Virus record (IMG/VR): IMGVR_UViG_2698536348_000004
Length of the DNA: 12,440 bases
Origin: a virus
Lineage: Duplodnaviria; Heunggongvirae; Uroviricota; Caudoviricetes
Direction: 5' to 3' (one strand)
The position numbers were made by a program, and so were the translations under genes. Positions within the stretch are counted from its first letter, which is position 1, and every line of letters starts with the position of its first letter. Under the pieces are notes generated by a model. It was not told where the DNA came from, made no database searches, and worked only from the letters and a program-made list of their open reading frames with translations. Of the stretch, positions 11,763 through 11,975 are shown piece after piece.

Positions 11763-11931
11763 GCCTCACGTTCGCCCACCTAAAAAACATAACCAATTGT
11801 ATTTATTGATGTAACTCGCTAAACCATGCAGTTATGATCCCTGCCGCATAACCTTCATCAGCCACATTTTCAAAAATAAATTTCCTTATATATCAGAATC
11901 ATACTTCGTAGAGTTAATAAATCACCAAAAT

Positions 11932-11975
11932 TCGTACCAATAGTTCTTGATAATGTCGAACTATTGGTTCATTAT
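11932..11975 (+). promoter_or_regulatory. Candidate pL with overlapping OL-like dyad
   Basis: TTGATA (11947-11952) - 17 nt - CATTAT (11970-11975). Perfect 10-bp inverted repeat CCAATAGTTC (11937-11946) / GAACTATTGG (11958-11967) overlaps the -35. TCGTAC half-site at 11932-11937, as in OR. Confidence 0.4.

Follow-up and report, generated by a model that had tools for sequence, protein, structure and literature searches.

A perfect inverted repeat over pL reflects two adjacent CI operators in what is very probably a 933W-type Shiga toxin prophage

The perfect inverted repeat that overlaps the leftward promoter in the viral DNA analyzed here is a by-product of two adjacent 15-bp operators, OL2 and OL1, for the phage's own CI repressor. 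The whole stretch of 12,440 bp, which we call the window, is very probably the early regulatory and immunity region of a 933W-type Shiga toxin prophage, with the part under study (11763-11975) serving as its left operator and promoter, OL/pL. The stretch of about 175 bp that lacks an open reading frame (ORF) and precedes the operators is the ordinary terminator-to-OL spacer of lambdoid phages. Upstream of OL2 this spacer holds a block as conserved as the operators themselves, which we tentatively discuss as an enhancer of pL.

Results

Identity of the window and its gene order

Positions 11700-12333 share 99.7-99.8% identity with phage 933W and many other Stx phages, and the interval under study, 11763-11975, is 100% identical to 933W. 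We transferred the annotation of the 933W record AF125520 to the window with an offset of +8199, and the resulting gene order (cro, OR1-3, cI, L0084, L0083, stk, L0081, tM, nutL, N) is that of AF125520. The following features derive from this transfer, the end of the last being set by its identity to 933W N:

8585-8812, minus strand: cro
8828-8842: operator OR1
8852-8866: operator OR2
8884-8898: operator OR3
8891-9598, plus strand: cI
ending at 11736: the genes L0084, L0083, stk and L0081
11993-12059, plus strand: nutL
12225-12333, plus strand: 5' part of N, cut off by an IS element and 100% identical to 933W N up to 12333

Neither pL nor OL is annotated in AF125520, and the original prediction had picked out exactly that gap. 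Within the right operator, the start codon of cI (ATG at 8891) falls inside OR3, and with the annotated pM ending at 8883 the cI mRNA would have no leader or almost none, as in lambda. The centers of OR2 and OR3 lie 32 bp apart, compared with 24 bp for OR1 and OR2. In the phage sequence PhiR12_2_star (139-1164), the same cI, spacer and OL/pL are found as in the window, and a gene annotated as 'T2SS GspM containing protein' replaces the L0084-L0083-stk-L0081 cassette between cI and the terminator; with another cargo gene in this place, the cassette slot between cI and tM is exchangeable.

At the other end of the region, about 36 codons of N remain before the gene is interrupted. Its homology with 933W N ends at 12333, and the sequence from 12334 to 12440 matches, at 100% identity, the end of an IS3-family element, IS1203/IS629 (IS1203 in L008). 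Judging by this insertion, the prophage copy should be N-defective, with pL and pR transcripts that would lack antitermination, and transcription from pL in this copy could presumably not lead to N-dependent antitermination.

The inverted repeat joins two operators of the phage's own repressor

The repeat consists of the arms ACCAATAGTTC (11936-11946) and GAACTATTGGT (11958-11968), which are 100% complementary and separated by 11 nt. The original prediction had described a perfect inverted repeat of 10 bp overlapping TTGATA; the repeat is present and does straddle the -35 hexamer of TTGATA-17-CATTAT, with arms that measure 11 bp rather than 10. It is the sole perfect 11-bp (and also the sole perfect 10-bp) inverted repeat with a loop of 3-20 nt in the 12,440-bp window. 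An 11-bp inverted repeat nonetheless arises in 5.7% of 1000 dinucleotide-preserving shuffles of the window, so that the dyad is only borderline unusual on its own statistics.

The rule for operators of the 933W repressor explains both arms. Five natural sites are described for this repressor, each 15 bp long and rotationally symmetric (Bullwinkle et al., 2012, PMC3317979). Positions 2-5 of the half-site are conserved as G, A or T, A, and C; at position 6, seven half-sites have T and three have C, and position 2 is G except in one OR2 half-site (PMC3317979). When the 12.4-kb window was scanned with the operator motif GWACYNNNRGTWC, it returned four matches, namely OR1, OR3, 11934-11946 (in OL2) and 11958-11970 (in OL1), where 0.12 are expected, and four matches did not arise in any of 200 shuffles. 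OR2, the known one-mismatch exception, was recovered once one mismatch was allowed. The two left operators are thus placed as follows:

11933-11947: OL2, 15-bp 933W CI operator CGTACCAATAGTTCT, matching GWACYNNNRGTWC and holding the left dyad arm (11936-11946)
11957-11971: OL1, 15-bp 933W CI operator CGAACTATTGGTTCA, matching GWACYNNNRGTWC and holding the right dyad arm (11958-11968)

Each of them fits the constrained operator positions at 10 of 10, and both obey the half-site rule nG(A/T)AC(T/C) as OR1-OR3 do. [quoted passage not shown] The dyad had been said not to resemble the OR dyads, a claim that we cannot uphold, since OL1 matches OR3 at 12 of 15 positions, OL2 matches it at 11 of 15, and all ten half-sites follow one rule. 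An independent GenBank record, of phage 22deltatox (GQ499365), labels the equivalent of 11934-11949 as 'OL2 repressor binding site' and the equivalent of 11956-11971 as 'OL1 repressor binding site'. Our assignment of OL1 and OL2 is accordingly based on the sequence rules, on a later paper from the same laboratory and on this GenBank annotation. From the literature we take that the 933W repressor binds two OL sites, as summarized in PMC3317979, and that 933W has no OL3 (PMC3317979; PMC5977221).

The dyad arms are the inner 11 bp of OL2 and OL1, which are near-identical copies in opposite orientation (12 of 15 positions) with centers 24 bp apart. OR1 and OR2 are also linked by an inverted repeat, in this case of 9 bp (ACTTTCAGT at 8831-8839 and ACTGAAAGT at 8855-8863), with the same center-to-center distance of 24 bp, which shows that such a repeat goes with paired operators. 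At both promoters of this lineage, neighboring operators combine into larger pseudo-palindromes. The match of OL2 to OL1 at 11 of 11 inner positions exceeds what the operator rule requires, and may reflect recent duplication, conversion or an unseen constraint. We also considered a direct repeat (11792-11812 versus 11936-11956, 71% identity) as a vestigial operator and rejected it, as it lacks a GWAC half-site and lambda, whose immunity differs, also conserves its upstream copy.

Natural variation separates two operators from one long dyad

The region is held by 424 E. coli genomes. For comparison we used prophages with the same operator type, which share 77-94% identity in the region, and aligned nine lineages, the window's own included. 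OL2 takes the form CGTAC-[C/T][A/T/G][A/G][T/C][A/G]-GTTCT across the nine lineages, and OL1 the form CGAAC-[T/C]A[T/A/C]T[G/A]-GTTCA. The half-sites CGTAC/GTTCT of OL2 and CGAAC/GTTCA of OL1, which the repressor contacts, are therefore invariant in nine of nine lineages, while the central, non-contacted positions, 6 to 6', vary. This pattern of invariant half-sites and variable centers indicates selection on two operators rather than on one 11-N11-11 unit. A single long dyad should keep both its arms and its symmetry across related phages, and here changes at the central positions abolish the symmetry: 1-3 substitutions leave the long dyad imperfect in six of the eight other lineages (E423, 2E9, UTME14, PC-NDM34, CD45 and 22-250), and the inverted orientation of the OL2 and OL1 centers is not conserved across the nine. 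In the natural OL2 variant of 2E9, CGTACTTATAGTTCT, the 11-bp dyad is destroyed and the half-sites are kept. Such natural variants show cleanly which operator positions stand under selection, a result of modest practical value.

The promoter pL lies between the operators and is shared with lambda

The sole sigma-70-like match in 11500-12440, on either strand, is TTGATA-17-CATTAT, which defines the promoter and, by homology, its probable start:

11947-11975, plus strand: pL, with the -35 hexamer TTGATA (11947-11952), a 17-nt spacer and the -10 hexamer CATTAT (11970-11975)
11982-11983, plus strand: putative transcription start of pL, the base before the conserved TCAGCAGGACGC, placed by positional homology with the lambda pL start

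OL1 lies within the promoter spacer and overlaps the -10 hexamer by 2 nt, and OL2 overlaps the -35 hexamer by 1 nt. The pL hexamers align column for column with TTGACA and GATACT of lambda pL, and together with TCAGCAGGACGC they align in six phages of three immunity types (lambda is among them, and ev017 represents the third type). Among the nine lineages CATTAT is invariant, and seven have TTGATA as the -35 hexamer where the other two have TTGATT; TCAGCAGGA does not vary in any of the aligned phages. We take the lambda start to be the A of ATCAGCAGGACGC, at lambda 35582, a position consistent with OL1 at 35591-35607, and on this footing transcription in the window would begin at about 11982-11983. 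The arrangement is that of a lambdoid pL, with a sigma-70 pair that follows the immunity terminator, precedes nutL/N, reads on the N strand and is overlapped by OL2 and OL1. The original call of pL is thus borne out: its -35, its -10 and its transcript start align with those of lambda pL, and nutL and N follow.

The phage Stx2_EH0787 has the spacer, operators and promoter of the window and continues into another nutL/N module, and the switch (at about 1430-1450, approximately window 11983-12000) comes directly after the conserved TCAGCAGGACGC. Most of the more divergent lineages also carry a different nutL/N module after a 933W-type OL/pL, and the mosaic boundary is sharp, at +1 to +13 of pL. 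The junction in Stx2_EH0787 fits an assignment of pL/OL to the immunity module.

The spacer combines a conserved junction with a conserved block upstream of OL2

The spacer follows the terminator of the lysogenic transcript and divides into a 5' part and a 3' part, with these features:

11735-11762, plus strand: tM (tIMM-type) intrinsic terminator, which ends the cI-L0084-L0083-stk-L0081 lysogenic transcript
11759-11845, unstranded: 5' part of the spacer, a junction block common to other immunity types (BLAST and alignments)
11871-11883, unstranded: A/T tract CAAAAATAAATTT, about -112 to -100 from the putative pL start
11891-11903, plus strand: IHF-like core TATCAGAATCATA, centered about -86 from the putative pL start and weak in the window itself

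A terminator scan found the stem at 11735-11756, with eight pairs, six of them G-C, followed by a T run; AF125520 places tM at the equivalent of 11737-11758, and lambda has the identical stem-loop and T tract. About 174 bp separate the terminator from the first operator and about 188 bp separate it from the -35 hexamer. That the spacer holds no convincing ORF, as originally stated, is confirmed by a search down to 20 aa, in which the longest ORFs touching 11763-11946 were 20-28 aa long. One phage record annotates a 52-aa ORF with a TTG start (11964-12122) that runs across pL and nutL, and we do not consider it credible. The same stretch had been described as longer than needed, which the comparison with lambda contradicts: the equivalent distance there, between rexB/tIMM and OL3, is about 150-170 bp.

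The first 51 nt of the spacer match lambda 35754-35802 at 90% identity (BLAST, E=1e-9). This 5' block also matches HK97, mEp234 and Stx1 phages by BLAST and aligns with ev017. Homology to lambda extends from the terminator into the spacer for its first 50-85 bp (lambda about 35754-35830), although the upstream gene differs, being rexB in lambda and L0081 here. Homology in spite of different upstream genes points to a conserved module junction, and the terminator with the block that follows it has the look of a conserved junction for recombination between modules. The 5' part (roughly 11780-11860) occurs as one of two unrelated alleles in prophages with 933W-type operators, which argues against an immunity-specific role.

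The 3' part of the spacer travels with the operators. Its best-conserved stretch, 11867-11899, scores 0.88-0.97 per 10-nt bin in the nine lineages, as high as the operators and the promoter. Within it, CAAAAATAAA (11871-11880) is invariant in the nine lineages, and conservation reaches 0.97 for 11870-11879. The 11-mer AAAAATAAATT occurs once in the window, where 0.04 occurrences are expected, and once in the 1-kb lambda locus, at 35672-35682, which is -90 to -100 from lambda pL and upstream of OL3. An A/T-rich, UP-like tract that is conserved and common to lambda is therefore present upstream of the promoter, and is a candidate for an UP element or for the 5' A/T element of an IHF site. At 11890-11899 conservation amounts to 0.93, and the motif TATCA(A/G)AA, also in the stretch 11867-11899, forms part of the 13-mer at 11891-11903.

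This 13-mer has two mismatches to the IHF consensus WATCAANNNNTTR in the window, a level of match for which the chance rate is about 3.4 per 250 bp, and a scan for the consensus found no site with at most one mismatch in the window. The core becomes suggestive when the lineages are compared: it has at most one mismatch in eight of nine, for which the chance rate is about 0.36 per 250 bp, and it is perfect in two and always centered at -85 to -87. Under the WATCAR form of the consensus, the core in the window would presumably have one mismatch, and we take the lambda IHF site to lie at about -86. Similarity to lambda in the middle of the spacer is at the level of motifs, with no BLAST-level match. 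Both IHF and a distal UP element stimulate pL of lambda (Giladi, 1998, as cited in PMC3708714 and PMC8053113), and this UP element, which lies proximal to OL, additionally activates PRM by way of the CI loop (Cui, 2013; Michalowski and Little, 2013, both as cited in PMC3708714 and PMC8053113). From the conservation and the lambda motifs, we suggest that 11867-11903 could function in Stx phages as an enhancer of pL made up of an IHF site and an UP element, as in lambda, a proposal that we hold to be quite possible and yet somewhat short of probable. Our literature search found no paper on an IHF/UP-element enhancer of pL for 933W.

Alternative readings of the repeat and the spacer

The original prediction had also raised the possibility of a second regulator, neither CI nor Cro, that would bind the 11-N11-11 dyad as a single site and control pL via its -35 hexamer. 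The quality of the repeat invites such a reading, as it is perfect over 11 bp, stands alone in the window at that quality and matches more positions than the CI operator rule requires; both arms nevertheless lie within sites that fit this same rule and are annotated as OL2 and OL1, and a repeat of this kind is held by the 5.7% of shuffled windows noted above. The analogous 9-bp repeat at OR1/OR2 has the same 24-bp geometry. The prediction had suggested a search for the dyad elsewhere, and in the window we found no further copy of the dyad arm beyond chance. In the comparison of lineages, the 1-3 substitutions that break the dyad in six of the eight relatives leave the 5-bp half-sites untouched. 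With its arms explained as the inner parts of CI operators and the long dyad not conserved in relatives, a dedicated second regulator appears extremely improbable to us, and we retain the reading of the repeat as a by-product of OL2 and OL1.

Two further proposals concerned what the spacer might contain. Additional weak CI sites, amounting to a cryptic OL3, could in principle serve long-range looping between OL and OR, as lambda has an OL3 and forms an OL-OR loop; 933W CI, to go by the title of a 2011 study by Bullwinkle and Koudelka, reportedly forms a long-distance loop as well, one that is said to play no part in regulating PRM. Among operator-like 15-mers in 11763-11932, however, the best reach only 7 of 10 constrained positions, and the published statements that 933W lacks OL3 (PMC3317979; PMC5977221) agree with this result, which makes cryptic operators very unlikely. 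The other proposal, that the ORF-free spacer (11763-11932) contains a small RNA gene or a further promoter on one strand or the other, could appeal to a non-coding, A/T-rich stretch of about 170 bp with a conserved block at 11867-11903, and to a weak TTGATG-18-AGTTAT pair that can be read at 11806-11835. The spacing of that pair is not conserved, as a 12-nt indel splits it in lambda, in ev017 and in three 933W-type lineages, and only pL passes the promoter scan on either strand. No terminator that could end a small RNA follows within the spacer. Rfam gave no real match, either for the whole window at the gathering score or for 11650-12300 at E<=5, where two chance-level hits appeared, and RNA folding of the spacer was no better than that of shuffles on either strand (z = +0.36 and +0.74). 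Promoter scan, Rfam and folding all speak against this proposal, the features of a small RNA gene are absent from the spacer, and we regard such an element as decidedly unlikely. What survives of the suggestion that the spacer holds regulatory DNA is its looser form, in that the conserved A-tract and IHF-like block lie at about -112 to -80, with no small RNA, promoter or operator among them. For the interval as a whole, we therefore keep to the reading of an ordinary lambdoid spacer that leads into OL2, pL and OL1.

Discussion

Our findings suggest a simple model for the control of pL in which a second regulator would not be needed. With OL1 in the pL spacer and overlapping the -10 hexamer, and OL2 abutting the -35 hexamer, bound CI dimers would occlude RNA polymerase, and CI on OL1 and OL2 would thereby shut off leftward early transcription (nutL, N and the genes downstream) in the lysogen. 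Upon RecA-stimulated cleavage of CI, pL would fire from about 11983. By analogy with lambda, Cro probably uses the same OL sites. The A-tract and the IHF-like core may together form an upstream activating region for pL; in lambda, IHF bends the DNA towards the distal UP element, and a similar arrangement may operate here.

The OL2-pL-OL1 region of phage 933W is already characterized, and our finding adds nothing new there. The operators and the promoter of 933W have reportedly been characterized since 2004, and the OL/pL region is said to be treated in work by Tyler, Mills and Friedman and by Koudelka and colleagues, both from 2004, and by Bullwinkle and Koudelka in 2011. Medically, the region matters because pL/OL of 933W-type prophages controls the first lytic step and, through it, the production of Shiga toxin. 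If the block upstream of OL2 does act as an enhancer, early leftward transcription, the speed of induction and, indirectly, Stx release would be tied to host IHF levels and growth phase.

Comparison with known systems places the region closest to OL/pL of 933W itself. The two are 100% identical over 11763-11975, with two 15-bp operators of the form nG(A/T)AC(T/C), no third site and matching half-site statistics, and nothing differs within this interval. Further downstream, the copy in the window differs from 933W by two substitutions after the -10 hexamer and by the IS1203/IS629 insertion in N.

The OL/pL region of lambda shows the same order of elements: a terminator, an ORF-free spacer of about 150-190 bp, operators over pL, the TCAGCAGGACGC start, nutL and N. 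The two also share an A-tract with an identical 11-mer about 90-110 bp upstream of the start, although the A-tract in the window lies about 10 bp further upstream than in lambda. The operators themselves differ, as those of lambda are 17 bp long, three in number and of another sequence, whereas those of the window are 15 bp long and two in number. OL1 is situated in the promoter spacer here, as opposed to over the -10 hexamer and the start in lambda.

Within 933W, the closest parallel is OR1/OR2 at pR, where two operators likewise lie 24 bp apart from center to center, share an inverted repeat and have one member in the promoter spacer. The second site is placed differently at the two promoters, with OR1 downstream of the -10 hexamer at pR and OL2 upstream of the -35 hexamer at pL. 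OR further possesses a third site, OR3, over the cI start codon, whereas OL has two sites only.
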